From Candidatus Fervidifonticultor quintus (lineage in GTDB: Bacteria; Sysuimicrobiota; Sysuimicrobiia; Sysuimicrobiales; Humicultoraceae), in the NCBI GenBank assembly GCA_031459535.1, contig JAVKIJ010000001.1:52510-92509 (forward strand): DNA of 40,000 nucleotides, written 5' to 3'. Under the pieces are notes generated by a model. The model did not search any database. It was given only the letters and a program-made list of their open reading frames with translations, and had not been told where the DNA came from. Position 1 is the first letter of the stretch; the number at the start of each line of letters is the position of its first letter. This document shows, piece by piece, positions 3,663 through 31,984 of the stretch. The position numbers and the translations under genes were made by a program.

Positions 3663-3731
3663 CACGATGTGTGCCCCCAGGGCCCACGTCCTGGGGGTTT
3701 CGTGTGACGAATTCCCGAGGGGCTCAAACGC

Positions 3732-4085: not shown

Positions 4086-4089
4086 TCCC

Positions 4090-6057: not shown

Positions 6058-6058
6058 G

Positions 6059-6385: not shown

Positions 6386-6395
6386 TACGGCGCCG

Positions 6396-6980: not shown

Positions 6981-6992
6981 CGCTCGAGCTCC

Positions 6993-8337: not shown

Positions 8338-8364
8338 CGGGACGGGTCCATGGGAGGGGCAGTC

Positions 8365-10125: not shown

Positions 10126-10129
10126 GTCC

Positions 10130-11548: not shown

Positions 11549-11591
11549 GCGAGGCGCACCGGAGGGCTACGAGGGGTCGAGGAGCCGCACG

Positions 11592-12996: not shown

Positions 12997-13002
12997 AGTG
13001 CC

Positions 13003-13350: not shown

Positions 13351-13353
13351 GCA

Positions 13354-14367
13354 ATGGCAGTCCGTGTGGGCATCAACGGCTTCGGGCGGATCGGCCGGCT
13401 GGTGCTGCGCGCCATGCGCCAGTACTATCCCCAGGAGATCGAGGTGGCTGCCGTCAACGACATCGCCGATCTGGCCACCAACGCCCATCTGTTCAAGTAC
13501 GACTCCAACTACGGCACCTACGGCGGGTCGGTGGAGACCCGGGAAGGCAAGTTGGTCATCGATGGCCAGGAGATCATGGTATTCGGCGAGCGGGATCCGT
13601 CCACCATCGCATGGTCCAAAGCTGGCGTCGAGGTCGTGGTGGAGTCCACCGGCCGGTTCACCCAGGCCGAGAAGGCCAAGGGGCACCTGCAGGGCGGGGC
13701 CAAGAAGGTCGTGATTAGCGCGCCGGGCAAGGGTGAAGACATCACCATCAATATGGGCGTCAACCATGAGCTCTACGATCCGGCCAGACACACCATCATC
13801 AGCAACGGTTCCTGCACCACCAATGGGCTGTCGGTGACGGCCAAGGTCCTCAGTCGCCAGTTCGGCATCAGGCGCGGCTTCATGACCACCGTGCACTCCT
13901 ACACCAACACCCAACGCATCCTGGACGTGGTCGGGGAAGATCTGCGGGAGGCCCGGGCAGCGGCGCTCAACATCATCCCGGCCAGCACCGGCGCCGCGAA
14001 GGCCATCTTCCTGGTGCTCCCGGAGCTGAAGGGCAAGATGACCGGCATCGCGCTGCGCGTGCCCACGCCCACGGTGTCCATCGTGGATCTGACCGTGGAG
14101 CTGGAGAGGCCCACGACCGCCGAGGCCATCAACGCGGCGTTTGCAGCTGCGGCCGCGGGTGAGATGAAGGGCTACCTAGGGTACAGCGAGATCCCGCTGG
14201 TGTCCATGGACTTCAAGGGCGACCCGCACTCCGGCGTGGTGGACGGGCCACTGACCGCAGTCATGCACGAGACCATGGCCAAGGTCATGACCTGGTACGA
14301 TAACGAGTGGGGCTACGCGTGCCGGGTGGCCGATCTGGTGCACTACATGGCACAACGAGGGCTCTAG
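13354..14367 (+). CDS. gap: Glyceraldehyde-3-phosphate dehydrogenase
   Basis: [12 protein letters not shown]-binding motif, catalytic SCTTN, and WYDNEWGY at the C-terminus. Confidence 0.97.
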
Positions 14368-14381
14368 GTGAGGCGCAGCCG

Positions 14382-14409
14382 GGGGCCGCGGGCGACCGCC
14401 CGCGGCCCC
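14382..14409 (+). other. Very stable GC hairpin in the gap-pgk intergenic region
   Basis: GGGGCCGCGGGCG-AC-CGCCCGCGGCCCC has perfect 13-nt arms, giving an effective 12-bp stem with a 4-nt loop. No U-tract follows. Confidence 0.5.
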
Positions 14410-14469
14410 TCGCATGACCGGCCGGCTTGGTGCTGGCGCGGCGAGACTCCGCCAAGTAGGGAGACTGAG

Positions 14470-15648
14470 ATGAAGAAGACCATTCGCGACGTGGATCTGG
14501 CCGATCGACGGGTGCTGGTGCGCGTGGATTTCAACGTGCCCATGGACGGCGGCATGGTGACCGACGACAGGAGGATCCGGGAGTCGCTCCCGACGGTGCG
14601 TTTCCTGGTCGAGCGCCGCGCCAAGGTCGTGTTGTGTTCGCACCTGGGGCGGCCGGGGGGCAAGGTGAACCCCGCGTTCAGCCTGGCACCGGTGGCGGCG
14701 CGGCTGGGCGAGTTGCTTGGGCGACCGGTGCCGCTGTTGCCCGATTGCGTCGGCCCGGCGGTGGAGGCCGCGGTGACGGCCATGCGGCCCGGTGATGTGG
14801 TGCTGCTGGAGAACCTGCGGTTCCACCCAGAGGAAGAGGCCAACGACCCGGCGTTTGCGCGGCGCCTGGCGGGCCTGGCCGATCTCTACGTCAACGACGC
14901 GTTCGGCACGGCCCACCGCGCCCACGCCTCCACCGCCGGCGTGGCCGCCTACCTGCCCGGTGTGGCGGGGTTTCTGATGGAGAAGGAGCTCAGGCATCTG
15001 GGCCAGGCCCTGGATGCCCCCCTACGGCCCTTCGTCGCCATCCTGGGGGGCAAGAAGGTCTCCGACAAGATTGCGGTGATTAGGAACCTGTTGACCCGGG
15101 CCGACGCGCTGCTGGTCGGCGGCGGCATGGCGTACACGTTCCTGAAGGCCAAGGGGTACGAGATCGGCGGCTCCATTCTCGATGCCGAGAACCTGGCCAT
15201 GGCCAGCGACTTCCTGGCCGAGGCCGACCGCCGCGGTGTGCGGTTCGAACTGCCGGTGGACGTGGTGGTAACCACGGCGCCGGACGGGAGCGCAGGTGCC
15301 CGGGTCGTTGATGCCAGAGCGATCCCGGCTGGCGAGGTGGGGGTGGACATCGGACCGCAGACTGCCGCGCGGTTCGCAGGGGTCATCCGCGGTGCGGGCA
15401 CCGTGCTGTGGAACGGCCCGATGGGCATCTTCGAGGTGCCCGCGTTCGCGGCCGGCACCAGGGCTGTGGCCGAGGCCATGGCCGCTTCCCAGGCCGTGAC
15501 CGTGGTGGGCGGCGGAGACACGGCCGCAGCCGTCGAAGAGTTTGGTCTGGCGGACCGCATGACCCATATTTCGACGGGCGGCGGTGCGTCGCTGGAGTTT
15601 CTCGAAGGCCGCGAGCTCCCCGGCATCGCGGCCTTGCAGGACGCGTAG
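14470..15648 (+). CDS. pgk: Phosphoglycerate kinase
   Basis: [11 protein letters not shown] and SHLGRPGG motifs. The ATG at 14470 follows a GGGAG SD. The track start at 14368 adds an Arg-rich non-homologous extension. Confidence 0.97.
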
Positions 15649-15672
15649 ACGTCATCGTCATTCGGAGGACGC

Positions 15673-16440
15673 ATGCGCACGCCCTTGATCGCGGGTAACT
15701 GGAAGATGCACAAGACCGTGCGGGAGGCGAGGGAGCTGGCCGAGGGTCTGCGGGCGCGCCTGGCTGGTTTCGCGGGCGCCGACGTGGTGGTCTGCCCGCC
15801 ATTCACCGCGCTGGCCGAGGTGGGCAGGATGCTGGCCGGATCGGCCATCGAACTGGGCGCGCAGGACCTGCACTGGGAGCCTGCGGGGGCGTTCACCGGC
15901 GAGATCTCGGCGCCGATGCTCTGGGACCTGGGGTGCACCTATGTGATCATCGGACACTCGGAGCGTCGGCGTCTGCTCGGTGAGGACGACGAGGCGGTGC
16001 GCCGCAAGGTGGCCGCCGCCCTCGCCAACGAGCTCATCCCGATCCTGTGCGTGGGGGAGTCGCTGGAGGAACGGGAGGATGGGCGGACCGAGCGGATCGT
16101 GCAGACCCAGGCGCGCATCGGTACCCTGGAGGTGCCCGACGGCCAGGCGGGCCAGCTGGTCATCGCCTACGAGCCGGTGTGGGCCATCGGGACCGGCCAC
16201 CCGGCCACCGGGCAGGAGGCCAATCGGATCGCCGGCCTGATCCGTGGCTGGCTACGACAGTGGTTCGGGAGTGCCGCCGAGGCCGTGCGGGTCCTTTACG
16301 GGGGCAGCGTGACGCCGGAGACCATTGCCGAGTTCGCCGGTCAGCCCGAGATCGACGGCGCGCTGGTCGGCGGCGCCAGTCTCGATGCGGACGCGTTCGC
16401 CAGCATTGTGAGGACGGTGGCCGAGCAGAAGAGATCCTGA
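15673..16440 (+). CDS. tpiA: Triosephosphate isomerase
   Basis: AGNWKMHK, IIGHSERR and AYEPVWAIGTG motifs. Confidence 0.97.
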   Translation: MRTPLIAGNWKMHKTVREARELAEGLRARLAGFAGADVVVCPPFTALAEVGRMLAGSAIELGAQDLHWEPAGAFTGEISAPMLWDLGCTYVIIGHSERRRLLGEDDEAVRRKVAAALANELIPILCVGESLEEREDGRTERIVQTQARIGTLEVPDGQAGQLVIAYEPVWAIGTGHPATGQEANRIAGLIRGWLRQWFGSAAEAVRVLYGGSVTPETIAEFAGQPEIDGALVGGASLDADAFASIVRTVAEQKRS

Positions 16441-18147: not shown

Positions 18148-19536
18148 TCACTCGACCGGGAAGCCGCTCCGCACCCAGGCGGCAGTGCCTCCGCTGACGT
18201 TGTAGACCGCGGCGAACCCTCTGTGGACCAGCAGCGCCGCCGCCGACTGGCTGCGGTTGCCGGTTTCGCAGATGACCGCCGTGGGCCGGGCCGGATCCAG
18301 CTCGCGCACCCGCTCGAGCAACTGGCCCAGCGGGAACAGCCGCGCCCCTGGCACGTGACCCTGCTCGAATTCCCAGGGCTCGCGCACGTCCAGCACGACC
18401 GGCGCGCTGCCGCCGCCCGCCCCGAGCATGGCGCGCAACGCTTCGGCGGAGAGGTCGTGCACGCCTCCGCTGGCAAGCGGAAGACCCATCGCCTGCCAGG
18501 CGTTCAACCCCCCGTTGAGACAACCGAGTACTTGCTCGAATCCCACACGGGCCAGCGCCAGGACCACCCGGCTATACGCGGCGTGATCGTCGAGCAACAG
18601 GATCACCGGTGCATCCGCCGGGAGGACGAAGCCGCTGCGGTTGCTCAGTTGAGGATCGGCCTGCAGGTGCACCGACCCGAGGATGTGGGCCCGGACGTAC
18701 TCCACCCGCGGCCGCACATCGAGCAGCACCGCGCCCTGGTCGAGGCGCGCGAGGGCTTCACCGATCGGAATGGCTCGCGGGGTGACCTCACCGAGCGGGG
18801 TCGGACCTCGTCGGTTGGCCTGTTTGATCCACGCGTGGTTGGCCGGCTGTTCCGGTAGCCGGTCAGTGGCGAACTGGACGAAGCCGGGCTTCGGGCGCGG
18901 GCGCAGCGCCGGGTTGAACCGCCGCTCGAATCCCAGGGTCGTGGTCGGCATGGCGCCGATAGACCTGCCGCACAACGATCCCTTGCCGTGCCCCGGGTAG
19001 ACCAGCACGCTGTCGGGCAGCGCCAGGAGCCTGCCGAACAGGCTGTCGTACAGGTGGCCCGCAAGCTCGCGCGCCGCGTCCAGGCCGACCAGGTCCGGCC
19101 GGCCCACGTCGCCTACGAAGAGCGTGTCGCCGGTAAACGCCAGCCACGGTTCGCCCGAGCGCCGCAGGTCGGCCGCCAGCACTGTGACGCTGTCAGGCGT
19201 GTGCCCCGGCGTATGACGCACCTGCAGCCGCGCCGTGCCGAGCTCGAGGATGTCGCCGTCTCGCATCGGAGCGTGCGGAAACTCGGCGCGGCCAGCCTCG
19301 TGGACGCAGATGGTCGCCCCGGTCCGCGCGGCCAGATCGGTATTGCCGGAGATGTGATCGGCGTGGAGGTGCGTTTCGATGATGTGGCTAATGCGCGCGC
19401 CGCGGGCCGCGACGGCGTCCAGGTACCGTCTGGTGTCGCGGTCGGGATCAATGACCGCCGCGACGCCGTGCACCTCGCAGCCGATCAGGTACGACGCGCA
19501 CCCGAGCCCATCCACGGTGAACTGCTGGACGTACAT
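18148..19536 (-). CDS. Persulfide dioxygenase-rhodanese fusion (MBL fold plus two rhodanese domains, CstB-like)
   Basis: HLHADH metallo-beta-lactamase motif. The middle rhodanese-like domain lacks the Cys (LLLDDHAAYS). The C-terminal rhodanese has the active loop CETGNRS. Confidence 0.88.
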   Translation of the reverse strand: MYVQQFTVDGLGCASYLIGCEVHGVAAVIDPDRDTRRYLDAVAARGARISHIIETHLHADHISGNTDLAARTGATICVHEAGRAEFPHAPMRDGDILELGTARLQVRHTPGHTPDSVTVLAADLRRSGEPWLAFTGDTLFVGDVGRPDLVGLDAARELAGHLYDSLFGRLLALPDSVLVYPGHGKGSLCGRSIGAMPTTTLGFERRFNPALRPRPKPGFVQFATDRLPEQPANHAWIKQANRRGPTPLGEVTPRAIPIGEALARLDQGAVLLDVRPRVEYVRAHILGSVHLQADPQLSNRSGFVLPADAPVILLLDDHAAYSRVVLALARVGFEQVLGCLNGGLNAWQAMGLPLASGGVHDLSAEALRAMLGAGGGSAPVVLDVREPWEFEQGHVPGARLFPLGQLLERVRELDPARPTAVICETGNRSQSAAALLVHRGFAAVYNVSGGTAAWVRSGFPVE

Positions 19537-19571
19537 GACCGCCCCCTCCGCGCCTCGGGCGTGTCAGGGCC

Positions 19572-19856
19572 CTACCGCAGCATCAGAAACACCTTCCGCA
19601 GGCGCGCCATGTTTGCCCGAGCCTGCGGAGTGCCCCCGGCGTCTGTGCGCAGACACTTCTCCATGCCGGCGGCGATCAGGTCGATCGCCACCCGATCCAG
19701 CGCGGCCCGCGCCGCCGCCACCTGCTGGGCCACATCGGCACAGTCGCGACCCTCAGCCAGCATCCGCTGGAGGCCCTGGACCTGCCCTTCAACCCGGCGC
19801 AGCCTGCGGATGATCTCGTCGACCTCGGGCTCCCCCAGCTGCAGCACCGGCGTCAT
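19572..19856 (-). CDS. CsoR/RcnR-family (DUF156) repressor with a CstR-like two-Cys signature
   Basis: 94 aa with RRLRRVEGQVQGLQRML and Cys in RDCADV and MEKCL. The residue four before the second Cys is Gly, not the His of copper-sensing CsoR. Confidence 0.86.
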   Translation of the reverse strand: MTPVLQLGEPEVDEIIRRLRRVEGQVQGLQRMLAEGRDCADVAQQVAAARAALDRVAIDLIAAGMEKCLRTDAGGTPQARANMARLRKVFLMLR

Positions 19857-19868
19857 CGTCTTCTCCTG

Positions 19869-20534
19869 CTACGCAGCGTTCAGGATCTCAGCCAGGAACG
19901 CGGCCTCCGGCTGGGCACCTTCGAAGCCGCCGGTCTCGTTGATAACGACCTTCGGCACCCCGTAGACATGGTAACGGGCTGCCAACTCGGGGAACTCCAT
20001 GGCCTCGTACACATCGGCCCGAATCCGGGCTGACTCCTGCGCAAACGCGTGCGCCAGGCGCGCGGCCTTGGGGCAGTAGGGACAGGTCGGCGTCACGAAG
20101 ACTTTGAGGTGCACATCCCTCTGGAGGCTGGCCAGCGCTGCCCGGGTCTGCGCCGACAGCCCGCTGTCGCCGCGGGAGACCGCCACTAAGTCGTCGAGGA
20201 AAGCCGCGAACTCGAACCCCGACGGGATCCCGTAGTACCGTAGGTTGTTCTGGCCGTTGCGGCCGATCAGCACCGCCGGCAGGTGCTCGATGGCCAGGGC
20301 GCGGGCGGTGACCGGGTCGCCGGCCGTGCTGTGGACCTGCAGGCGAATGCGGGGGTCGAGGGCCGCGACCTCCTCGAGGAGCTGCCTGGTGGTTTCGCAA
20401 GTCTCGCAGTCGCGGCCGGGAACCGCCAGGCCCCCGATAGTGTTGACGAAGAGCCTCACCGTGACGTCGCCGGCTAGCTCAGCCTGGAGCCGCTGCCGGA
20501 CCTGCTCGGCCTGCTTGGCGCTCATGAGAGCCAT
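19869..20534 (-). CDS. Protein disulfide oxidoreductase (PfPDO/glutaredoxin-like, two thioredoxin folds)
   Basis: Two CxxC sites (CETC and CPYC) in a tandem thioredoxin-like architecture. The ATG at 20534 lies 9 nt after GAAGGAG. Confidence 0.8.
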   Translation of the reverse strand: MALMSAKQAEQVRQRLQAELAGDVTVRLFVNTIGGLAVPGRDCETCETTRQLLEEVAALDPRIRLQVHSTAGDPVTARALAIEHLPAVLIGRNGQNNLRYYGIPSGFEFAAFLDDLVAVSRGDSGLSAQTRAALASLQRDVHLKVFVTPTCPYCPKAARLAHAFAQESARIRADVYEAMEFPELAARYHVYGVPKVVINETGGFEGAQPEAAFLAEILNAA

Positions 20535-20581
20535 TGCGCATCGCTCCTTCCCAGGAATGTTCCCAGACGCGGGCATAACCG

Positions 20582-20595
20582 TACCCTGTAGGGTA
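20582..20595. promoter_or_regulatory. CsoR/CstR-type operator palindrome
   Basis: TACCC-TGTA-GGGTA is a perfect inverted repeat of the GC-tract type bound by CsoR-family repressors. It directly abuts the minus-strand -10 box. Confidence 0.55.
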
Positions 20596-20624
20596 TAATA
20601 GCAAACGTCTTGCGGATCTGTCAA
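20595..20624 (-). promoter_or_regulatory. Promoter of the sulfur-cluster operon
   Basis: On the minus strand: TTGACA (20619-20624), an 18-nt spacer, then TATTAT (20595-20600). Confidence 0.5.
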
Positions 20625-21426: not shown

Positions 21427-21456
21427 TTGACACCCCGAAATCGGCGTTCCTATAAT
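21427..21456 (+). promoter_or_regulatory. Consensus sigma-70 promoter upstream of tRNA-Leu
   Basis: TTGACA (21427-21432), an 18-nt spacer, then TATAAT (21451-21456), about 50 nt upstream of the tRNA. Confidence 0.55.
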
Positions 21457-21592: not shown

Positions 21593-21641
21593 AGTGTTGT
21601 CAAGGCGATGGAGTCCGCCTGAACCGCCCTGACGGGCTGAT

Positions 21642-21671
21642 GGCTCCTACCCAACTCAGCGGGTAGGAGCC
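21642..21671 (+). terminator. Terminator-like hairpin after tRNA-Leu
   Basis: GGCTCCTACCC-aactcagc-GGGTAGGAGCC forms an 11-bp perfect stem. It is followed by the pyrimidine-rich CTCTCTGTT. Confidence 0.45.
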
Positions 21672-21704: not shown

Positions 21705-22901
21705 GTGGAGCAGGTCTGGTTCACCGCAGCCATCTGGCTTGGACTCGCCCTCATCGCCACCCTCCTGTCGATCTGGCTGCGGGTGTCCGTCGCCCTAACC
21801 GAGATCACCGTGGGCATGGTGGCCCAACTGGTCGTCGCGGGAATCGCCGGGCCGGGGGCGCTGGGTGCCCGGGAAGGATGGATCGCCTTCCTGGCCGGCC
21901 TTGGGGCGATGGTGCTCACGTTTCTGGCCGGCGCAGAACTCGACCCGGACTCCTTCCGAAGGAACTGGAAAGAGGCAACCGTCATCGGGCTCGTGGGATT
22001 CTTCGCGCCGTTTCTGGGAGCCACGTGGGCGGCGCGGGCCTTGCTGGGGTGGGGTGTCCAGGCCAGCCTGCTTGCCGGCGTCGCCCTCTCCACCACATCG
22101 GTCGCCGTCGTCTACGCCGTACTCCTGGAGCTCGGCCTCAACCGGACTGCCTACGGCAAGATCATTCTCGCTGCCTGCTTCATCAACGATCTGGGCACGG
22201 TGGTCGCTCTGGGCCTGATCTTCGCACCGTTCACGCTGCGCAGCCTGGCGTTTGTCGTGGGCCTGGGGGCGGGCCTTGCGGTATTGGTCCGGGCCACCGG
22301 CGCGCTTTTTGGGCGGTACGGGGGGCGGACTTCAGAGCTCGAGGCCAAGCACCTGCTGTTCGGCCTCTTTGTGCTGGGCGGGCTCGCGGTATGGTCGGGC
22401 TCCGAGGCGGTGCTCCCTGCCTACCTCATCGGCATGGTCCTGGCGGGCACCGTGGGCCGTGATCAGGCCCTGGTCAGGCGGCTCCGGACGCTGACCTTCG
22501 GGTTATTGACCCCCTTCTACTTCATCCGGGCCGGATCGTTCGTCGATGTGCCTGCGGTGGTGGCGGGTCTCGGCGTGTTCACCGTGCTCTTCCTGGCGAA
22601 AGCGGTCAGCAAGTTCGTCGGCATCTTTCCGCTGACGCGCCGGTACGGCTATCCCCACAATGAGGGCATGTACACCACGCTGTTGATGTCCACCGGCCTG
22701 ACGTTCGGCACCATCGCCGCGCTCTACGGCCTCTCTCACGACATCATCACCCAGAAGCAGTACTCGTTCCTCGTAGCCACGGTGATCGCGAGCGCTGTGG
22801 TACCCACCTGGGTGGCCAACAAGTTTTTCCTGCCGGTGCGCCATCTCCCGTCCGAGGAGGCACGCGACCCCCAAGATGCGCTGACGGCTGAGCCCGAGTA
22901 G
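21705..22901 (+). CDS. Cation:proton antiporter (Na+/H+ exchanger family, CPA-type)
   Basis: 398-aa polytopic membrane protein whose N-terminus AAIWLGLALIATLLSIWLRVSVALTEITVGMV is typical of the Na_H_exchanger family. GTG start. Confidence 0.86.
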   Translation: MEQVWFTAAIWLGLALIATLLSIWLRVSVALTEITVGMVAQLVVAGIAGPGALGAREGWIAFLAGLGAMVLTFLAGAELDPDSFRRNWKEATVIGLVGFFAPFLGATWAARALLGWGVQASLLAGVALSTTSVAVVYAVLLELGLNRTAYGKIILAACFINDLGTVVALGLIFAPFTLRSLAFVVGLGAGLAVLVRATGALFGRYGGRTSELEAKHLLFGLFVLGGLAVWSGSEAVLPAYLIGMVLAGTVGRDQALVRRLRTLTFGLLTPFYFIRAGSFVDVPAVVAGLGVFTVLFLAKAVSKFVGIFPLTRRYGYPHNEGMYTTLLMSTGLTFGTIAALYGLSHDIITQKQYSFLVATVIASAVVPTWVANKFFLPVRHLPSEEARDPQDALTAEPE

Positions 22902-22929
22902 AGATGCAGGAATGCGGAGGGAGCGGACA

Positions 22930-23349
22930 ATGATCACGCACATCCTCATTGCTCACGACGGTTCCGATGTGGGGCGGCGGGCGGTTGAAGTCGGCACCGA
23001 CCTGGCCCTGCGCTATGGGGCGAAAGCGACTCTGCTGACGGCGATTCAATATCCCGCCTATGCGGCCACGGTGGACGAGGTCCAGGGCGCCGACGAGGAG
23101 CAGCGGGCCTTCGCCGAACGGGTCCAGCGTCAGGCGATCGAGTACGCTCGGATGCGCGGCCTCGACATGTCGGTCGCGATTGTGGCGGGCCATCCGGCCG
23201 AGGTGATCGTGGACTATGCAGGGCAGCACGGGATTGACCTGATCGTGATGGGACATCGGGGGCTGTCCGGGTTGAGGCGGTTTCTGGTGGGCAGTGTTGC
23301 GGACCGAGTGGTGGATCACGCACCATGCATGGTGTTGGTGGTGAGGTAG
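22930..23349 (+). CDS. Universal stress protein (UspA family)
   Basis: ILIAHDGS and the C-terminal GHRGLSGLRRFLVGSVADRVVDHAPCMVLVV. The ATG at 22930 lies 6 nt after GGAGGGAG (track start 22912). Confidence 0.9.
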   Translation: MITHILIAHDGSDVGRRAVEVGTDLALRYGAKATLLTAIQYPAYAATVDEVQGADEEQRAFAERVQRQAIEYARMRGLDMSVAIVAGHPAEVIVDYAGQHGIDLIVMGHRGLSGLRRFLVGSVADRVVDHAPCMVLVVR

Positions 23350-23461: not shown

Positions 23462-25078
23462 CTACGGGCTCGCCGCAGACACGGGGCTTGGGGGCATGCC
23501 GAAGACGCGCCGATACACGTCCTCTCCATGGCTGGTGGCGAGCGGCTCGCCTTCCAGGATTCGGTAGGTCCGACGCCCGTCGGGGAGTCGTTCGGCGCGA
23601 AGGAAGAGAGCCTCATCCAGTTGCTGCCGGTGCAGTGAGCGTGCGAGATCGAACAGGTGGGTGACGAAGACGATTCGCACACCGAGGTCCGCGAGCGCTC
23701 GGAGCACCTGGCGCGCGATCTCTGATCCTTCGCGCTCGTTGGTGGCAGCAAAGGACTCGTTGAGAAGAATGACAGAGTCCGGGCGGACGTGATCGATGAT
23801 CTCACTCATACGCCGCAGTTCTTCGTCGAACTTGCCGCTTCTCATCTCGACGTCCTCTTCCCTCTTGAAGTGGGTGAAGAGACCGCGGCAGAGGCTGGCG
23901 TGGAACGAGCGGACCGGAACGATCATACCCGCCTGCATCATCAGTAGCGCCGTGCCGATCGTGCGCAGGAAGGTGGACTTGCCGCCGGAGTTGGGACCGG
24001 TGATGATCAGGAGATTCTTCCGGTTCGCGTAGAGGTCGTTGGGGACCACGGGGCTATCGAGAGTCAGGGCGAGAGTGACGTCGTGCAGGCCCTGAAACGA
24101 CAGCCGCCGCTCGCTCGCGGGAGAGGGCAGGGGCAGGGACGTGGGGTACCCCTTGCGGGTCAAGGATTCGTGGAGATTCAGACAGCCGATGTAGAAGGCG
24201 AGTTCCGCTCGCAGCATGGTGAAGAAGTCGCGCACGTGGTTGGCGGCTTGGCCCAGGGCGTCGGCGGCCGAGGCAGTGGCCCGATTGCGGAGCTCGGCCA
24301 GGGCCTGGACGCCGGCTTCGTCGCGGGGGGAGAGCTCGAAGCGATAGGTGGCTGGGTGCTCTTCGAAGAGGTTCTTCCACCAGTCGATCCAGGCTCGCCT
24401 GCGGGCCGAGGTCCGGTGCAAGCGGTAGTGGGTGCCCTTGTTGGCGGGGCCGAGCTCGGCACTGAACAGCAGGCCGTGTGGGAATGTGAGGTCGTGCAGG
24501 TGGCGTTCGACCGCTGTGAGGTAGTCGCCGCCGAGGTTCTGTTGGACCATGGCGAAGAACGTGGTCCAGGCCTGGGCGCCGAAGTGCCGTGCGTGGAACT
24601 CGGCGAGGTCGCGGAGCTTCCGGAGCGGTCCGAGGAGCTTCGTCATCGTCTCGCGGGAGTCGCGGAGCACCCAATCCGGGTAGCGAGAGAGCACGCCGAG
24701 ATAGTGCCCCCTCAACGGTTCTGTGGCTTCCACCGCGAGGGCGTAGAGATGGCGGACCACAGCCGGTTGGCGGAGGCAATCGGCCAGAACACACTGACGA
24801 TACAGAATCGTGTCGAGATCACCTTGCACGGCCTCCAGGAGGACTCTGCGGCTGACCTCAAAGACCCAGTCGTCGCCCCGTGCCATGGCGTCCAGGAGGG
24901 GAATCAGGGCCAGGTCCCGCTCGAGGTCCTCGGCGTTCCAGGGAAAGCCGGCATGGGGATTGAAGCCAGCGGGACGGGAGCGTCGTTGTCCAGTACGCGC
25001 GGCGGTGCGCTCCACTGCCGCCTGCTGTACGTGCTCCCAGTCCAGATCCAGCGTGGGATGCAGAAGGTGGGCCTTCAT
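23462..25078 (-). CDS. MutS-family ATPase B (domain V plus helical core; no mismatch-binding or Smr domain)
   Basis: Walker A GPNSGGKST, Walker B region VILLNESFAATNEREG and H-loop FVTHLFDL. The ATG at 25078 overlaps the upstream stop (ATGA). The track ORF extends to 25243 inside the upstream gene. Confidence 0.85.
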   Translation of the reverse strand: MKAHLLHPTLDLDWEHVQQAAVERTAARTGQRRSRPAGFNPHAGFPWNAEDLERDLALIPLLDAMARGDDWVFEVSRRVLLEAVQGDLDTILYRQCVLADCLRQPAVVRHLYALAVEATEPLRGHYLGVLSRYPDWVLRDSRETMTKLLGPLRKLRDLAEFHARHFGAQAWTTFFAMVQQNLGGDYLTAVERHLHDLTFPHGLLFSAELGPANKGTHYRLHRTSARRRAWIDWWKNLFEEHPATYRFELSPRDEAGVQALAELRNRATASAADALGQAANHVRDFFTMLRAELAFYIGCLNLHESLTRKGYPTSLPLPSPASERRLSFQGLHDVTLALTLDSPVVPNDLYANRKNLLIITGPNSGGKSTFLRTIGTALLMMQAGMIVPVRSFHASLCRGLFTHFKREEDVEMRSGKFDEELRRMSEIIDHVRPDSVILLNESFAATNEREGSEIARQVLRALADLGVRIVFVTHLFDLARSLHRQQLDEALFLRAERLPDGRRTYRILEGEPLATSHGEDVYRRVFGMPPSPVSAASP

Positions 25079-26607
25079 GGACGAACGCGTTCTCGGATCG
25101 CGTCGTACGTCAGGCCGTGCTTCCGCGCCAGTGTCAGGGCGTAGGCAAGGCCGTCGGCGGGCCGCCGGACGATCTTGAAGGTGCGCACCTCGGGATTGTC
25201 GGGGGTGACCGTGGCGACCATGCTGACGGTCTTGGCGCTCCACGAGGCCAGCTCATCGAGGAATGTCACCCACACGCAGAAGGCGTCGAGCTCCGAGATG
25301 GCAGAAATGACTTGTCTGGCCAGAGAAAGAGCATCGCGCAAGGTGGTGGAGGAAAAAACCTCGTTGATGACGAGGACACTGCTGGCTGTGGCAGCTTGGA
25401 GGATCTGGTGGATCCTGAGCACGTCGTGCTCCAACTGGCCCTGGGGGCTCGCGACGGGCTCCCCTCGTTCGAAGTGGCTGAAGATCCGATCCGGCAGAGA
25501 TAGCCGCGCTGAGGCGGCTGGGACGGGGCATCCCAGTGACGCTAGGTAGTGAAGCTGACCGAAGGTGCGGGCAAAGGTGGTCTTTCCACCCTGGTTTGGA
25601 CCGGTGACGATGATGATGCGCTCCGGATCATTCAGGCAGAAGTCGTTGCACACCGGCAGGGAGCCCTCTCGGACGAGTCTGGCCGCCAGCGCCAGATCGA
25701 AGCACTGATGAGCGTACACCCGCTGGGACGAATCGCCGATCCGAGGATAGCAGAAGTTCAGACCCGCACGCTTCATTGGTGCGATGTACTCGAGATAAGC
25801 CATGTAGAATTGCACTTCTCGGTCAAAGGCCTCGATAGCGGGTTCGAGGAACGATCCATGGGCGCCGCGAAATGCGGCGAGGTCGGCGAAGAGTTCGGGG
25901 TACAGGGCTGCGACGCCGTCGAGGACTTGGGCCTCGACGTGGTTCATGTTGGAGGAATTTGGGAAGGTGAACTGGTAGCCAGAAGAGTGGGTCTGGCGGA
26001 AGCGTTGGAACGTGTGGGTGATTTCTGCGCTGTAGTCGGTCTCACCCTGGTGGTGGCGCACCTCGACGAGCAATCCGCGGATGAGGGTAGCGTAGCGGAG
26101 CGAGGAAAGCGCAGCCCGAAGACGGTCGGCTTCGTCTCTGAGTTGCCTGAAGGCCGGCCCAGATGCGTAGGCGAGGAGGAAGCGGCGAAACTCCAGGAGC
26201 CCGGCGGACTGAAGTCGCGCGGCGGAGAGGTGCTCGGCTAGGCGGGAAACGGCGTGGCAGTAAAGCCCGACGGCATCCAGGAACCAGCGCTCCTGCTGCC
26301 GCTGCCAGTACGCTTCTCTGGAGAGAGCGAGATGCGATCGAACGGTGCGCATGGCCGATGCAAAGTCAGCCACCTGGGCGAACAGCATGGAATCTTCCAG
26401 ATCCTTCATGACCGCCTGGCGGAAGAGGACCCCGCGGACCGAGGGGAGAGGGGTGTAGAAGAACGGGTTGAGATGATACTCCTCGCGGCCGGCGGCGACG
26501 CCGTTGACGACTTGGTCGAGAAGCAAGTCGGTAAAGAACGGCGGAGGCTCTGGCTGGAGGACCAGGCGCGCCTGATCGGGCGGAAAGAGCAGGCTCAGCC
26601 TCGTCAT
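25075..26607 (-). CDS. MutS-family ATPase A (domain V plus helical core; degenerate H-loop)
   Basis: Walker A GPNQGGKTT and Walker B region VLVINEVFSSTTLRDA. WVTFLDEL occupies the place of the MutS TH motif. The ATG at 26607 overlaps the TPR gene stop (ATGA). Confidence 0.85.
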   Translation of the reverse strand: MTRLSLLFPPDQARLVLQPEPPPFFTDLLLDQVVNGVAAGREEYHLNPFFYTPLPSVRGVLFRQAVMKDLEDSMLFAQVADFASAMRTVRSHLALSREAYWQRQQERWFLDAVGLYCHAVSRLAEHLSAARLQSAGLLEFRRFLLAYASGPAFRQLRDEADRLRAALSSLRYATLIRGLLVEVRHHQGETDYSAEITHTFQRFRQTHSSGYQFTFPNSSNMNHVEAQVLDGVAALYPELFADLAAFRGAHGSFLEPAIEAFDREVQFYMAYLEYIAPMKRAGLNFCYPRIGDSSQRVYAHQCFDLALAARLVREGSLPVCNDFCLNDPERIIIVTGPNQGGKTTFARTFGQLHYLASLGCPVPAASARLSLPDRIFSHFERGEPVASPQGQLEHDVLRIHQILQAATASSVLVINEVFSSTTLRDALSLARQVISAISELDAFCVWVTFLDELASWSAKTVSMVATVTPDNPEVRTFKIVRRPADGLAYALTLARKHGLTYDAIRERVRP

Positions 26608-26945
26608 GGCTTCGGCATCTGACGCTCGCATCGTAAGAGCAGCCCGCGCGCGGGCTCGAATCCTGGTTGGTCGTCGAGGATCTCGCGCAGGATCTTCGCC
26701 GCGTCGGCGAACTGGCGTTGCTCGACGAGACTGTGGGCGAGGTGTAAGCGAAAGTGTGGTTCATACGGGTTGAGCCAAACAGCCAGCCGGAAGAAGCGCT
26801 CGGCAGGTTGGTACGCTTCGCACTTCATGAGATGTGCGCCGATTCGATCCTCGGCGTATCCCAGATGGGGACTAGGGCGCAGCAGTTCGTTGCGTCGCTC
26901 GTGAGGCGTGCCCCGGGTTCGACGCGCCGCCGCTACCATCGCCAC
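26604..26945 (-). CDS. Small TPR-like repeat protein
   Basis: About two TPR-like helix pairs (AERFFRLAVWLNPYEPHFRLHLAHSLVEQRQFADAAKILREIL). The start is either GTG 26945 or ATG 26939, and both overlap the upstream gene. Confidence 0.6.
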   Translation of the reverse strand: MAMVAAARRTRGTPHERRNELLRPSPHLGYAEDRIGAHLMKCEAYQPAERFFRLAVWLNPYEPHFRLHLAHSLVEQRQFADAAKILREILDDQPGFEPARGLLLRCERQMPKP

Positions 26946-27661
26946 ACCACGCCCGGCGCACCCACGTACTTGTGGAGCACACGCTGCCAGGAGGTGGCCT
27001 CCCCCTGGCTCATGGGCTCGTGCCTAAACCGATAGTCGTGCTTTCGCCAGAATTCCGACAGGTCGTTCAACAGACCCTCCAGGAGCGCTCGCTCCGCATT
27101 CGTTAGCCACTCGAGGTCCGAGGAGGACTCGGTCTGGGTCATCACGGTGGCGAGATGTCGGAGACACAACCCCAGGCTCGACGCGTAGCGGGCGCGGAAG
27201 TCCTCGTCCGGCAGCGCCTGGGCCGTGGCCCACGTGTACCGCTCCTCCGCCTGCCACTGGTCGGCGCAGGCGAGGCAGGGCCGCTGGGGAGTCAGCCATG
27301 CTGACAGGCTGCGGCCGAGCCCTCCGTTCGATCCACCGAACAACGCCAGGCGCAGCCCGACGGGCTGACTCACGCGTCCAGCGGCTTCCGTAATGAAGGT
27401 GTCATAGAACTCCTGCAGCAGATGGCGATAGACAATGGCGATGCCGGTCTGGCTGTCCAGGATGTGTGTCAACCGCCAAGCGTGCGCCGCGCAGAAACCG
27501 CGCGAGGCGAGCAGGTCCTCTCGGGTCCAGGGGTCATTGACCCGCTCGTACAGAAATCCGTCGATCAGCCGCTCGACCCCCTGCACGCTGAGATGACAGA
27601 CCGCGCAGTGCTGCCAGTCGAGGGCATGATAGACCGCGAGGAACAACTGGTCGTGCTGCAT
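26933..27661 (-). CDS. Cys/His-rich protein with duplicated CxxC...CxxH module (DUF6062-like)
   Basis: CAVCH...FCAAHAW and CLACA...LCLRHL sit in equivalent positions in the two halves. The C-terminus has KHDYRF...SW. It resembles my recollection of the uncharacterised DUF6062 family. Confidence 0.7.
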   Translation of the reverse strand: MQHDQLFLAVYHALDWQHCAVCHLSVQGVERLIDGFLYERVNDPWTREDLLASRGFCAAHAWRLTHILDSQTGIAIVYRHLLQEFYDTFITEAAGRVSQPVGLRLALFGGSNGGLGRSLSAWLTPQRPCLACADQWQAEERYTWATAQALPDEDFRARYASSLGLCLRHLATVMTQTESSSDLEWLTNAERALLEGLLNDLSEFWRKHDYRFRHEPMSQGEATSWQRVLHKYVGAPGVVWRW

Positions 27662-27664
27662 GGG

Positions 27665-28132
27665 CTATCGGCGCTCTCCAACGGGGCTGTCGCGCCCGGG
27701 CCGTGGTCCTGCACCATCGCCGGTGCTGATCAGACTGGCCTCGAGCTCGGCCACGGCCCGACGCAGCCGATCGTGCCGTGCCCGCTGGATGGCCAGCGAT
27801 CGCTGATACTGGGCGTTGGACGCTTCCAGCCCCGTGATGTTGAGACGGAGAGTGCGGATGGCCTCATCGGCCAGGTAGGCCCGGTGCCGGAGGATAGCCA
27901 TCTCGGCCCTGGCAGCCGACCACTCATTGTGGAGCTGTTCGGTGGGTCGCTCCGATGCCGTCAATGCGTCAGCGGCATATGCCAGGAGGATCTTGACTCC
28001 CTCCTCAGGCGTCCAGCCCCTCTCGCGGATGAAGGCCTCGAACCGCGTACGGAGCCGGGCCGGGATCGGAACGGCGATCCGCTCCATCCGTGGAAAGACG
28101 AACTCACTCACGCCTGAACCTGCCCACGCCAA
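27665..28132 (-). CDS. RHH-like N-terminal domain plus coiled-coil protein (paralog 2)
   Basis: ERIAVPIPARLRTRFEAFIRERGWTPEEGVKILLAYA fits a strand-helix-GxT-helix (RHH) pattern and is followed by heptad-rich helices. The likely start is ATG 28087. The alternatives GTG 28111 and TTG 28132 overlap the upstream gene. Confidence 0.6.
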   Translation of the reverse strand: MAWAGSGVSEFVFPRMERIAVPIPARLRTRFEAFIRERGWTPEEGVKILLAYAADALTASERPTEQLHNEWSAARAEMAILRHRAYLADEAIRTLRLNITGLEASNAQYQRSLAIQRARHDRLRRAVAELEASLISTGDGAGPRPGRDSPVGERR

Positions 28133-28607
28133 GGAGCCTGGCCAACCGGTTTCCCAGCGCCTGTGGACGCCTAGGCGATGGCGTCGGTGCAGTCAGCGCC
28201 TCTCGAAGTGATCGAAGCTTCGCGTCCAGCGCGTCCGTCTCACGTCGCAGAGGCCACATCTGCCCCCGGTTGGTCCGTAGCTCAGCCCCCAGGGCGTGCA
28301 CCCTCTCCGAGAGCTCATGCATGAGTTTCTCGCTGGCAATGGTGCGGGCACGCAGGGACACCAGGAGGGCCTCGGTCTCCCGTCGCTTGAGTTCCTCACG
28401 CCGCCTCTGGGCGTCGAGGCCCGATTCTCCCTCCAAGGCTCGCCAGGAGGCTTCGTCCTGGGCGAACAGATCGATCCCCTGCTCCAGGAGCCATGGCAGT
28501 CCCGCGTCGACTTCACGGCCGGCCATCTCAAGGGCTCGCCGGATCACAGCCCAGTCGTCGCTCAGCAACTCTACATCGATTGTCATTGCTTCAGCGAACT
28601 CCTGCAT
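28104..28607 (-). CDS. RHH-like N-terminal domain plus coiled-coil protein (paralog 1)
   Basis: MTIDVELLSDDWAVIRRALEMAGREVDAGLPWLLEQGIDLF followed by a long coiled coil. It has the same architecture as the next gene. The opposite-strand ORF 28090..28614 is Ser/Arg-rich and looks like an antisense artefact. Confidence 0.6.
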   Translation of the reverse strand: MQEFAEAMTIDVELLSDDWAVIRRALEMAGREVDAGLPWLLEQGIDLFAQDEASWRALEGESGLDAQRRREELKRRETEALLVSLRARTIASEKLMHELSERVHALGAELRTNRGQMWPLRRETDALDAKLRSLREALTAPTPSPRRPQALGNRLARLLGVGRFRRE

Positions 28608-28711
28608 CCCGTAAACAAGAAGCCCCTACCGATCCACAGATCAGTAGGAGCTATCAGCCTCGCGACATGAGGCGACGGCGAGCTCCATCGCCTATTCGAT
28701 TTGAGCCTGCT

Positions 28712-28750
28712 TTGTAACACAGTCTACCTTACCGGAAGTCACTGTGTCAA
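28712..28750 (-). promoter_or_regulatory. Candidate promoter of the six-gene operon, embedded in an inverted repeat
   Basis: On the minus strand: TTGACA (28745-28750), an 18-nt spacer, then TAGACT (28721-28726). The inverted repeat ACACAGT (28717-28723) / ACTGTGT (28741-28747) has one arm on each box. Confidence 0.4.
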
Positions 28751-28852: not shown

Positions 28853-30105
28853 ATGAGCCCTACGTCGAGACGAGAATACATCCAGGCAATCCGCCAGCGC
28901 TATGTCCGCGCCCCGCGTGCTGTCAAGCAGCACCTGCGCGATGAGGTCTGTGCCGTGACTGGGTACCAACGCAAGTACGCTAGCCAGGTCCTCAACAGCG
29001 CGTCCCCGGCCAAGCACCCGTGTCCCCGGCGGCGCCGGGCTCCCACGTACGGCGCCAGGACCATCGCCCTCCTGGCCGCAATTTGGGAAGCCGCCGGGTA
29101 CCCCTGGTCGGCGCGGCTCAAGGCCCTGCTGCCGCTCTGGTTGCCCTGGGCCACGCCGCGGTTTGCGATCACCCCCGAGCAGGAGCGCAGTTGCTGACGA
29201 TCAGCCCCCGGACCATCGACCGTCGCCTCGAGGCCACGAAAACCCACCTGCGGTGCCGCCTCTATGGTCGCACCAAGCTTGGCACGCTACTCAAGCACCA
29301 CATCCCCCTCAAGACCGATCGGTGGGACGTCACCACCCCCGGCTTCGCCGAGACGGACTTGGTCTCGCACTCCGGCAACGCCGCCGACGGCGAGTTTGTC
29401 CACTCCCTCAATCTGACCGACATCCAGTGCACCTGGGTCGAAACCCGCGCGGTGCTGGGCCGCGGGCAGACCGGCGTCCTCGCAGCCGTGGACGAGATCG
29501 CGGAGGATCTCCCCTTTCTCCTGCGAGGACTAGACGCCGACAACGGCTCCGAGTTCATCAACCACCACCTCTTCCGGTACTGCCAGGACCACGGGATCCA
29601 GCTCACCCGCGGCCGGCCCTACAAGAAAGACGACAACGCCCACGTTGAGCAGAAGAACTGGACGCACGTCCGCAAGCTTCTGGGCTGGGATCGCTACGAC
29701 TCCCACCAAGCCCTGGAGGCGATCAACGACCTCTACCGCCACGAGCTCCGGCTCATGATGAACCTGTTCCAGCCCTCGGTGAAGCTCGTCCGGAAAGTCC
29801 GCGTCGGCTCCCGGCTCAAGCGGGTCTATGACCGGCCCCAGACGCCCTTGGATCGTCTCCTGGCCACCGGCGCTGGCGACCCGGCGAAGGTCGCCGCCTT
29901 CCAGCAGCTGCGCACGCGCCTGGATCCCTTCGCGCTCACCCAGCCGATCGATCGGAAACTCGCCCGAATCTACCGCCTCGCGAACCACCGCCCCAGCCTC
30001 CCGTGCGTCGCCCCGCCACAAGGTCCGCCAGTGAAGTGCAAGGGGTGGGGTCCCGGCAGTGCCGCCGCGGAGGACTGGTTCGTCATCCGCGCGAAAGCAG
30101 ACTGA
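28853..30105 (+). mobile_element. DDE (rve/integrase-core) transposase gene, disrupted by a frameshift (ISNCY/ISDol1-like by recollection; family unverified)
   Basis: The N-terminal HTH part is in ORF 28853..29197 (CAVTGYQRKYASQVLN). The catalytic part is in ORF 29020..30105 (DADNGSEF...YKKDDNAHVEQKNW). The frames join near 29180-29197 (ITPEQE | AQLLTISPRTIDRRL). Confidence 0.8.
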
Positions 30106-30142
30106 GAAAGCCCTGGGGCATCCTTCGGTGGAGGATTTTGCC

Positions 30143-31984
30143 ATGTTCGGATGGACCGGAAACATCCTCAGAGTCGATCTGACGCACAAGACATTCCGAA
30201 GAGAGACGTTCGACGAGGCATTCGCCCACAAGTGGATCGGCGGCCGGGGATTCGCCGTGAAGACTCTCTGGGACGAGCTCGAACCGGGCATTGATCCCTT
30301 GGGGCCCAAGAACAAGTTCGTCGTGGCCCTGGGCCCCATCGCCGGCATTGCCGCGCCCAATACGGGCAAGACCGTGGTCGCGGCCAAGTCGCCGCTGACC
30401 GGAGGGTACGGGGACGGCAACCTGGGCACCCGGGTCACGGAGCAACTCCGAAAGGCCGGCTACGACATGCTCATCGTCGAGGGGGCGGCGGAAGCACCCA
30501 CGGTCCTCTTCATCGAGGATGATCGGGTGGAGTTCCACTCTGCCGCCGAGGTCTGGGGCCAGGGGACGTACGCAACTCACCACTGGATCTACGAGCGCTA
30601 CGGCAAGACGGTTGGGGTGCTGGTCATCGGGCCCGGAGGGGAAAACCTCAACCGCTATGCCGTGGTCCGGAGCATGGAGGGACGCTCGGGCGGCCGGCCC
30701 GGGATGGGCGCGGTGATGGGGTCGAAGAAACTGAAGGCCATCGTGGTGAGGGGGCGCGGGTCCGTTCCCCAGGCCGATCCCGCAGCCATGAAGAAGCTGG
30801 GCTCCGCCGACCTGCGCGCGGTGCACCAGATCGACAAGAAGACCGGTTGGTCCCTCCAGGGCACCACCGGCATTCTCGCGTGGTGCAATGAGGTGGCCGC
30901 GCTGCCGGTCCGCAACATGAGGAAGACCCATCACCCTGATGCCAGGTTCATCGACGGGGAGCGGCTGCACGAAGCGCGGGTGGCGACCTACGGCTGTCCG
31001 ATCTGCACCATGCCCTGCGGGATCGCCATCCACGACCGCGAAGGCCGGGAGTCCGAACTCGACTACGAGAACATCGGCATGCTAGGCAGTAACCTGGAAA
31101 TCTTCGAACTCGACCAGGTTGGCTCCCTCAACTTCCTGTGCGACGACTACGGCCTGGATACCATCTCTGCCGGCGGCGTCCTCGCCTTCTACGCCGACGC
31201 CATCGACCGGGGAGCGGTCAGTGGCGATTTCCGGTTCGGCGATGGCGAGCGAGCCAAGGTGCTGCTCCGTCTGGCGGCCCTCAGGGAAGGGGAGGTGGGC
31301 AACCTGCTGGCCGAGGGCACCATGCGCATGGCGCAGAGATTCGGCCGGGGCTCAGACGCCTACGCCATGCACGTCAAGGGGATGGAGATCTCCGCGTACA
31401 ACTGCAAGCTCTCGCCCGCCATGGCCCTGGCGTACGGGACGAGCCCGATCGGTGCGCATCACAAGGACGCCTGGGTGATTACCTTCGAACTCAACCAGAC
31501 GGTTCGGGATTCCTACGGCCGGGAGAAAGCTCAAAAGGTCGTCGAGCTGCAGAGGATTCGGGGAGGCTTGTTTGAGTATCTGATTGCGTGCCGCTTTCCC
31601 TGGATCGAGGTCGGCTGGGAACTCGATCACTATCCGGTGTATTTCAACACCGTCACCGGGCTCCACTGGACGCTGGACGACTTCTGGAAGGTCAGCGACA
31701 GGATCTACGCACTCATGAAGTTCTTCTGGTTGCGGGAGTTTCCGGATTGGAACCGCAAGATGGACTACCCGCCTATGGTCTGGTTCGATCCCGCCAACGC
31801 CGATACCGACGGACCCATCGCGGGCAAGGTCCTCGATCTGGCACAGTACGACCGCCTCCTGAGCCACTACTATGATCTCCGCGGCTGGGACGAGAGAGGC
31901 GTGCCAACCCGGAGGACGGCGGCAGCCCTCGGCCTCGAGGACGAAGCTCGGCGGGCGGAGACGTTCGGAAGGTTGGAAGACTGA
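30143..31984 (+). CDS. aor: Aldehyde:ferredoxin oxidoreductase (tungstopterin AOR family)
   Basis: N-terminus GNILRVDLT, the [4Fe-4S] motif CPICTMPC, and CDDYGLDTIS. The ATG at 30143 lies 8 nt after GGAGG (track start 30059). Confidence 0.93.
   Translation: MFGWTGNILRVDLTHKTFRRETFDEAFAHKWIGGRGFAVKTLWDELEPGIDPLGPKNKFVVALGPIAGIAAPNTGKTVVAAKSPLTGGYGDGNLGTRVTEQLRKAGYDMLIVEGAAEAPTVLFIEDDRVEFHSAAEVWGQGTYATHHWIYERYGKTVGVLVIGPGGENLNRYAVVRSMEGRSGGRPGMGAVMGSKKLKAIVVRGRGSVPQADPAAMKKLGSADLRAVHQIDKKTGWSLQGTTGILAWCNEVAALPVRNMRKTHHPDARFIDGERLHEARVATYGCPICTMPCGIAIHDREGRESELDYENIGMLGSNLEIFELDQVGSLNFLCDDYGLDTISAGGVLAFYADAIDRGAVSGDFRFGDGERAKVLLRLAALREGEVGNLLAEGTMRMAQRFGRGSDAYAMHVKGMEISAYNCKLSPAMALAYGTSPIGAHHKDAWVITFELNQTVRDSYGREKAQKVVELQRIRGGLFEYLIACRFPWIEVGWELDHYPVYFNTVTGLHWTLDDFWKVSDRIYALMKFFWLREFPDWNRKMDYPPMVWFDPANADTDGPIAGKVLDLAQYDRLLSHYYDLRGWDERGVPTRRTAAALGLEDEARRAETFGRLED

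Follow-up and report, generated by a model that had tools for sequence, protein, structure and literature searches.

A MutS4A/MutS4B gene pair with remodelled ATP-site motifs in a predicted fluoride-riboswitch operon

We analysed a 40,000-nt stretch of the Candidatus Fervidifonticultor quintus genome (GCA_031459535.1, contig JAVKIJ010000001.1, positions 52,510 to 92,509; hereafter the window), focusing on two adjacent minus-strand genes for MutS-like ATPases of the MutS4 subfamily, referred to as proteins A and B (coordinates of all features in Table 1). A and B probably form a fluoride-induced obligate heterodimer that combines the MutS core-clamp-ATPase fold with two unequal, remodelled ATP sites. 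A first-pass annotation of the pair had pointed out its unusual catalytic motifs and proposed an obligate heterodimer with one degenerate site, and had missed the fluoride-riboswitch operon in which the pair lies.

The only MutS family of Pfam matched by the two proteins was MutS_V (residues 332-497 of A and 357-530 of B), with no Pfam match to MutS_I, MutS_II or Smr in either. Scores against the NCBIfam MutS equivalog model (81.6 bits for A, 80.2 bits for B) fell far under its cut-off of 480, and those for TIGR01070, the MutS1 model (76.7 and 73.5 bits against 641.7), and TIGR01069, the MutS2 model (55.1 and 88.7 bits against 400), were likewise low. Membership in the KamC-type reactivases was rejected, as model NF052383 matched the ATPase domain only (44.3 bits for A and 76.6 bits for B, with a cut-off of 300), and so was a role in anti-phage defence, as PADLOC found nothing in A and, in B, only short matches of P-loop length. 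The two proteins are full-length paralogs of one another (hhalign probability 99.9, 23% identity over 444 columns). The MutS4 subfamily was described by Lin, Nei & Ma in 2007 from five bacterial and two archaeal species, as adjacent genes in which the MutS4A stop overlaps the MutS4B start, with function unassigned (PMC2190696). Table S3 of Kim et al. 2017 lists WP_083134047.1 of Mycobacterium branderi as MutS4A and WP_083134046.1 as MutS4B (PMC5742357); these are the two coding sequences at the M. branderi locus of our comparison set (L086), under plasmid match H13. In blastp comparisons, window A was 44.6% identical to this MutS4A (413 bits, versus 92 bits for the MutS4B), and window B was 47% identical to the MutS4B (434 bits, versus 101 bits for the MutS4A). 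From these reciprocal matches we identify the pair, on sequence grounds, as MutS4A/MutS4B, and the first-pass reference to MutS subfamilies lacking domain I, some in adjacent pairs, was right. The best explanation for MutS4A and MutS4B is an ancient tandem-duplicated pair of MutS-family ATPases of the ATP-binding cassette (ABC) type, a family that we found in at least 597 species.

Both proteins carry a MutS-type Walker A motif, as had been claimed, and in both the Walker B Asp is changed to Asn. In phmmer alignments with proteins of solved structure, Asn415 of A is matched to the Walker B Asp in Thermus MutS2 (LIDELGSGT) and in human MSH2 (IIDELGRGT), Phe449 to the His of TTH/ATH, and GQL to the STF motif; in B, Asn440 aligns with the Asp of Taq MutS (LLDEVGRGT), His474 with the ATH His, and GKF with STF. 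The same motif columns were paired when the A and B families were aligned to each other with hhalign. The Asn and Phe are not misalignments, the error that the first-pass annotation had named as fatal to its proposal. The alignments also reveal that the Arg-containing GRGT after Walker B in MutS and MSH2 is replaced by FSST in A and FAAT in B. Conservation was assessed in aligned A/B pairs from 70 species belonging to many phyla. The Walker B Asn and the Walker A Lys were present in all 70 members of each family, the Glu following the Asn in 70/70 A and 69/70 B sequences, and the TH position was Phe in every A and His in every B (70/70 each), so that the reported Asn substitutions and His/Phe difference hold well beyond the window. 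This invariance of Asn, Glu, Phe and His argues that the substitutions are no sign of decay, and the odd ATP-site residues are, as judged from the alignment, fixed family characters.

The segment equivalent to STF had also been described as different between A and B. It does differ (GQL versus GKF), but on these alignments part of the difference is a peculiarity of the A protein of this lineage, as the two families share Gly-Lys at the signature position, with the consensus (R)GKL-x-DDL in A and (S)GK(L/F)DEEL in B. Window A has Gln where 67/70 species have Lys and His where 67/70 have Asp, giving GQLEHDV (25432-25446; A residues 388-396) versus GKLEDDL in its nearest relatives and GKL(E/Q)DDL in 67/70 species overall. 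Window B, for its part, has a rare form of Walker A (GPNSGGKST; the family form is GANQGGKST), and in a heterodimer these two changes would face one composite site. Lineages that deviate in the A signature tend to deviate in the B Walker A as well (Fisher p = 0.025, uncorrected for phylogeny), with no signal in the reciprocal direction of this co-variation, which we regard as a weak hint, not evidence.

Gene order was compared in 80 loci from other species, which represent the best matches and not a random sample of the family. In all 80 loci with room for it, a B homolog comes immediately after A, and the stop and start codons overlap by 4 nt in 67/70 loci and by 1 nt in two more. The window pair has the same ATGA junction, confirming the coupling noted previously. 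A candidate A-B fusion in locus L062 (one 1025-aa open reading frame, ORF) was rejected upon inspection, with a normal ATGA at the junction and the long ORF being an out-of-frame artefact of high G+C content. The B copy is fragmentary, through internal deletion or truncation, in L021 (5025-5785) and L070 (11480-11863), where A seems intact; either decay of the pairs or faulty assembly might account for this. The constant position of B behind A, the retained 4-nt overlap and the invariant His/Phe asymmetry together strongly favor an obligate heterodimer, most likely assembled through the ATPase domains with two composite ATP sites. This comparative evidence strengthens the heterodimer part of the first-pass proposal, whereas the term "degenerate" is only partly apt: the switch His is indeed absent from A, but its catalytic Glu and Walker A Lys are present, and the Asn occurs in both sites.

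Sequence features place A and B as the last two genes of a six-gene operon, g1-g2-DUF6062-TPR-MutS4A-MutS4B, under predicted fluoride-riboswitch control. The genes are tightly packed, separated once by a 3-nt gap and otherwise overlapping by 8, 7, 4 and 4 nt, so that the operon would be translationally coupled, and the aptamer at their head, a match to the Rfam fluoride riboswitch model, scores 55.5 bits with the covariance model built in this analysis (R1). A pattern match places a terminator-like hairpin over the 3′ end of the aptamer, and its stem, which would compete with that part of the aptamer, is predicted to serve an ON switch as expression platform. Aptamer and terminator would be mutually exclusive, and fluoride binding is predicted to release transcription of the operon. 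Two other terminator-like hairpins (25375-25359 and 27577-27560), considered as possible operon breaks, were discarded, being located in coding regions and compatible with chance occurrence (3.3 expected, 6 found). A second fluoride riboswitch in the window heads a plus-strand operon for a Na+/H+ antiporter and a universal stress protein (Usp) that converges on B. Rising cytoplasmic fluoride would thus have A and B made alongside the antiporter and Usp, with the conserved ATGA overlap coupling the synthesis of A and B.

Fluoride riboswitches accompany MutS4 pairs in other genomes as well. Using a covariance model derived from 16 Rfam-confirmed aptamers, which is less curated than the Rfam model, we obtained 163 matches in 1.38 Mb of loci. 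At least one fluoride riboswitch was found in 66/79 loci; it was located on the same strand within 400 nt 5′ of A in 39 of the 79 (34 at 27 bits or more, the other five below 27 bits) and within 2.7 kb in 18 further loci. Those directly 5′ of MutS4A include the ones in M. branderi and Burkholderia multivorans, and in loci L085, L008 and L062 the antiporter, Usp, MutS4A and MutS4B genes form one riboswitch-led string. Behind the riboswitch, A and B were without any other gene in 39/79 loci, and with about half of the loci lacking an accompanying partner gene, the pair appears to be a self-contained module. Weinberg et al. (2010) named mutS among the genes downstream of the crcB motif (PMC2864571), and the comparisons presented here identify that riboswitch-associated MutS, at the level of sequence, as the MutS4 pair.

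AlphaFold2 (AF2) monomer models had predicted local distance difference test (pLDDT) values of 85.3 for A and 80.7 for B, and their best Foldseek matches were MSH2, MutS and the MutS2 core (approximately 500 columns, E-value about 1e-17). The predicted architecture comprises long lever helices, a clamp-like insert formed by a small beta-hairpin and then the ATPase domain, without the mismatch-recognition domain I, the connector domain II or a nuclease domain. By analogy with related ATPases, the ATPase domains would pair head to head, so that one subunit would hold each ATP with its Walker A, Walker B and switch His, and the partner with its signature. The A site would then contain Asn-Glu, no His, and the Gly-Lys of B in trans, and the B site Asn-Glu, His, and the A signature in trans; both would be rebuilt relative to MutS1 and MutS2, with Walker B Asp changed to Asn, signature Ser-Thr to Gly-Lys, and the Arg of DExGRGT lost. 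The presence of the switch His in the B site alone suggests a faster B site and a slower or regulatory A site. [quoted passage not shown] Since this protein still hydrolyses ATP, the Asn points to altered Mg2+ handling and not to a dead site, and we infer by analogy that it would weaken Mg2+ coordination in both MutS4 sites. Fluoride acts on phosphoryl-transfer enzymes via metal-fluoride complexes (PMC11139923); a connection between this chemistry and the redesigned Mg2+ coordination of a fluoride-induced ATPase is a suggestive hypothesis.

Several observations weigh against this picture. No riboswitch was detected within about 10 kb in 13/79 loci, and the Rhodococcus and Rubrobacter plasmids showed none directly 5′ of MutS4A, which makes fluoride control of MutS4A/B, as predicted from sequence, common but not universal. 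The A site has its catalytic Glu and so may not be slow. The clamp-like insert is small, has a poorly predicted tip with pLDDT values below 50 (A 200-219, B 222-243) and conserves mainly acidic or aromatic residues instead of basic ones; together these features weaken a DNA-clamp reading. Finally, the sole functional datum for MutS4 comes from one heterologous assay, in Mycobacterium smegmatis (PMC5742357).

That the heterodimer works as an ATP-driven clamp on DNA under fluoride stress is a tentative proposal, which we hold at somewhat less than an even chance. The MutS fold points toward DNA, as does the M. smegmatis result, in which the MutS4 operon of M. yongonense raised the recombinant frequency (PMC5742357). 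The non-basic clamp insert and the examples of MutS2, which acts on ribosomes, and KamC, which by its name acts on enzymes, keep other targets alive: A/B may instead engage stalled or collided ribosomes, or reactivate a fluoride-poisoned enzyme. The fold matches include MutS2 on collided disomes (7qv3), KamC is a MutS-domain ATPase named as an enzyme reactivase and is among the weak NCBIfam matches, and the regulon enzymes enolase and pyrophosphatase are inhibited by fluoride (PMC11139923). We nevertheless consider a target other than DNA unlikely, given that A and B lack the KOW and Smr domains used by MutS2, that the KamC scores (44 and 77 bits versus 300) cover the ATPase domain alone, and that the pair has no fixed partner gene and stands alone behind the riboswitch in half of the loci cited above (39/79).

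A bolder but doubtful possibility is that the rebuilt sites constitute a nucleotide switch that no longer relies on tightly held catalytic Mg2+, making MutS4A/B a fluoride-proof back-up clamp. Asn in place of the Mg-coordinating Asp, the signature Lys of the partner and the loss of the GRG Arg would then allow MutS4 to cycle, or to report trapping, while ordinary ATPases, including MutS1 and MutS2, are blocked by Mg/ADP-fluoride complexes. If true, this would be a previously unrecognised hardening of an ATPase against fluoride.

Bacterial MutS1 and MutS2 are homodimers, and A and B might each follow them as a separate homodimer, merely co-expressed with the other; the complete Walker A and catalytic Glu in both proteins could make a self-paired site. 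We judge this quite improbable, as A and B are never apart in the 80 loci, 67/70 loci from different phyla retain their 4-nt coupling, and a His/Phe difference that has been invariant since the duplication fits a division of labour in one complex; the co-variation of A signature and B Walker A (p = 0.025 in the Fisher test, phylogeny not being corrected for) adds a weak hint in the same direction. A and B could also be envisaged as catalytically dead nucleotide-binding scaffolds, or pseudo-ATPases, that have lost hydrolysis through the Asn and Phe, as Mg2+ coordination normally needs the Walker B Asp and the TH-motif His is important in ABC-type ATPases. In agreement with this, E. coli MutS D693V is nearly inactive, but D693N hydrolyses ATP (PMC2857095), and the conservation of the catalytic Glu and Walker A Lys in both families would be unexpected for dead sites, leaving little probability for inert scaffolds. 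The database label, DNA mismatch repair protein MutS, under which source annotations name both proteins and with which MutS_V and the overall MutS-like fold agree, is very hard to credit for a pair that has neither domain I nor connector domain II, scores 81.6 and 80.2 bits against a 480-bit equivalog cut-off, lies under a predicted fluoride riboswitch and not under housekeeping control, and occurs also in mycobacteria, where it was reported as the first MutS homologs (PMC5742357).

The genes that recur around MutS4 pairs make up the recognised fluoride regulon, encoding enolase, CrcB, DUF190, Na+/H+ antiporter, Usp, a major facilitator superfamily transporter and hydrogenlyase-like hydrogenase subunits; dynamin-like GTPases and DUF6062 proteins are recurrent as well. 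None of them is a fixed partner among the MutS4 loci; the neighbors differ from locus to locus and appear to share a regulon with the pair, not a complex. The g1-g2-DUF6062 genes, or DUF6062 alone, stand behind their own riboswitch in the window (26933-28586, minus strand) and in L062 (4171-5792), L007 (2503-3365), L061 (14438-15242) and L047 (7172-7854); in L062, the g1 homolog lies behind a riboswitch and the g2 homolog is 48% identical. Among clustered copies of DUF6062, which is Cys-rich with two CxxC pairs, 5/11 have a riboswitch within 350 nt. Several unrelated genomes thus place DUF6062 behind a riboswitch of its own, and the protein seems to belong to the fluoride regulon, as a member not yet described. 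A dynamin-family GTPase of approximately 600-700 aa occurs in 25/80 MutS4 loci (for example L039, 8123-9907, and L088, 9080-11197), with a fluoride riboswitch directly upstream of 14/33 copies. Two small families (for example L007, 7833-8300, and L031, 7965-8429), a 155-aa family without Pfam match and a zinc-ribbon and HEAT-repeat protein, are present in 14-16 MutS4 loci, with several copies right behind riboswitches. Locus L085, on Klebsiella pneumoniae plasmid NZ_CP017986 (88940-114460), is a large fluoride island with three riboswitches beside an IS5 element; in addition to antiporter-Usp-MutS4A-MutS4B it holds ppaC-usp-eno-gpmA-crcB-P-type ATPase and a ClC-type channel with DUF190. Such islands were seen on IncFIB/IncHI1B conjugative plasmids of Klebsiella, Enterobacter, Citrobacter and Salmonella.

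The MutS4A/B subfamily has been named without a function since 2007, and "mutS" has stood on lists of riboswitch-associated genes since 2010. In the accessible literature we found no link between the two, no description of the N-E Walker B, Gly-Lys signature, His/Phe asymmetry or fluoride-riboswitch control of MutS4, and no account of the family's size (at least 597 species) or of its spread on enterobacterial conjugative plasmids; literature searches combining fluoride with MutS function or expression gave nothing relevant. The present analysis bears on the long-standing question of why a fluoride response should include a MutS-like ATPase, and describes a MutS4 family whose catalytic residues have been rewritten in an invariant, asymmetric way, a natural counterpart of E. 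coli MutS D693N. It also gives a different reading of a 13-ORF island of M. yongonense (OEM_51290-51410), which was described as pathogenesis- and recombination-related (PMC5742357). Its genes (enolase, "NADH dehydrogenase"/hydrogenase subunits and MutS4A/B) match those of the fluoride islands described above, five fluoride-riboswitch matches lie in the related M. branderi locus L086, and we re-read the "recombination/pathogenicity" island as a fluoride island.

For the window itself, public gene calls of identical contigs give the same 510- and 538-aa products for A and B, and the nearest database entries are from Armatimonadota metagenome-assembled genomes. An rve-family integrase/transposase ORF (28853-30105, plus strand) just past the riboswitch promoter bounds the fluoride gene cluster, and is followed by an aldehyde:ferredoxin oxidoreductase gene (30059-31984). 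Just beyond the riboswitch-controlled genes on the other side (18148-20624, minus strand) are genes for a metallo-beta-lactamase-rhodanese fusion, sulfur-dioxygenase-like, and a thioredoxin-fold protein, for neither of which was a connection to the A/B pair established. Positions 1-16440 (plus strand) hold housekeeping genes, namely proton-antiporter-like Nuo/Mrp subunits, a V/A-type ATPase operon, DUF881 and gap-pgk-tpi, which indicates a chromosomal location for the fluoride island.

Table 1. Positions of the genes, ATP-site motifs and predicted regulatory elements in the window
Feature	Coordinates	Strand	Description
MutS4A (protein A)	25075-26607	minus	510 aa; Walker B N415-E416, F449 for switch His, GQL at STF position; predicted MutS core-clamp-ATPase fold
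A Walker A GPNQGGKTT	25576-25602	minus	coordinates checked
A GQL at STF position	25432-25440	minus	coordinates checked
A N415-E416 (Walker B)	25360-25365	minus	coordinates checked
A T448-F449 (TH position)	25261-25266	minus	coordinates checked
ATGA stop/start overlap joining A and B	25075-25078	minus	A TGA 25077-25075, B ATG 25078-25076
MutS4B (protein B)	23462-25078	minus	538 aa; Walker B N440-E441, switch His H474 present, GKF at STF position; predicted MutS core-clamp-ATPase fold
B Walker A GPNSGGKST	23972-23998	minus	coordinates checked
B GKF at STF position	23828-23836	minus	coordinates checked
B N440-E441 (Walker B)	23756-23761	minus	coordinates checked
B T473-H474 (TH position)	23657-23662	minus	coordinates checked
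Sigma-70-like promoter of six-gene operon, TTGACA-18-TAGACT	28721-28750	minus	10/12 pattern match, directly 5′ of riboswitch
Fluoride riboswitch aptamer RF01734	28638-28701	minus	head of g1-g2-DUF6062-TPR-MutS4A-MutS4B; 40.8 bits (gathering 34), E 4.4e-8, full-length
Terminator-like hairpin	28621-28652	minus	14-pair stem then TCTTGTTT; 5′ arm overlaps aptamer 3′ end (judged by coordinates and sequence); pattern match
g1	28104-28586	minus	160 aa; first operon gene; no Pfam match
g2	27665-28111	minus	148 aa; without reliable family match; 8-nt overlap with g1
DUF6062 protein	26933-27661	minus	242 aa, Cys-rich; PF19538, E 3.8e-17
Small TPR protein	26604-26939	minus	111 aa; TPR_19, E 1.6e-5; TGA overlaps ATG of A (ATGA)
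Promoter-like site of second riboswitch	21427-21456	plus	12/12 match
Second fluoride riboswitch aptamer	21595-21656	plus	Rfam scan, 59 bits, E 5.2e-14; heads antiporter-Usp operon
Terminator-like hairpin overlapping second aptamer	21642-21671	plus	pattern match
Na_H_Exchanger	21705-22901	plus	riboswitch-led operon converging on B
Universal stress protein (Usp)	22912-23349	plus	same operon as Na_H_Exchanger

Among known systems, the closest is the MutS4A/MutS4B subfamily as originally defined, with which the window pair shares adjacency, the stop/start overlap and an ATPase region as the only recognisable part, without structural difference; the subfamily is patchily distributed and prone to horizontal transfer. 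The crcB-motif or fluoride regulon, reportedly the subject of Baker 2012, has in common with the loci studied here a riboswitch-led ON switch and genes for CrcB, enolase, Na+/H+ antiporter, Usp, DUF190 and formate-hydrogenlyase-like proteins; its published lists give only "mutS / DNA repair", whereas here the MutS is the MutS4A/B pair and the association has been counted. MutS1 has canonical hhhhDE, STF and TH motifs in every subunit, in contrast to N-E in both MutS4 proteins, GQL/GKF, and Phe in A. The MutS2 core (Thermus thermophilus 7vuf; Bacillus subtilis 7qv3) shares the core-clamp-ATPase arrangement without domains I and II (E-value about 1e-15, template modelling score 0.55-0.60), yet MutS2 is a homodimer with canonical D-E and TH motifs and C-terminal KOW/Smr domains, which MutS4 lacks. 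MSH2-MSH6, MSH2-MSH3 and MSH4-MSH5 resemble the proposed MutS4 heterodimer in having paralogous subunits with two non-equivalent composite sites, and MSH proteins give the best fold matches of A and B. They keep D-E, STF and TH in both subunits, however, so that their asymmetry is kinetic and not in the catalytic residues, and they have no riboswitch stress induction of the kind predicted for MutS4. Heterodimeric ABC proteins with one degenerate nucleotide site, such as TM287/288 and CFTR, are similar to MutS4 in that one site is without the switch His; in classical degenerate sites the catalytic Glu is missing too and the signature deviates, whereas MutS4 has the Glu in both sites. Lastly, E. 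coli MutS D693N (PDB 3k0s; Lebbink 2010, PMC2857095), which is among the fold matches of A and B, carries the same Walker B Asp-to-Asn exchange as an engineered, repair-defective variant, whereas in MutS4 the Asn is the invariant wild type and is combined with the Gly-Lys signature and the loss of the GRG Arg.

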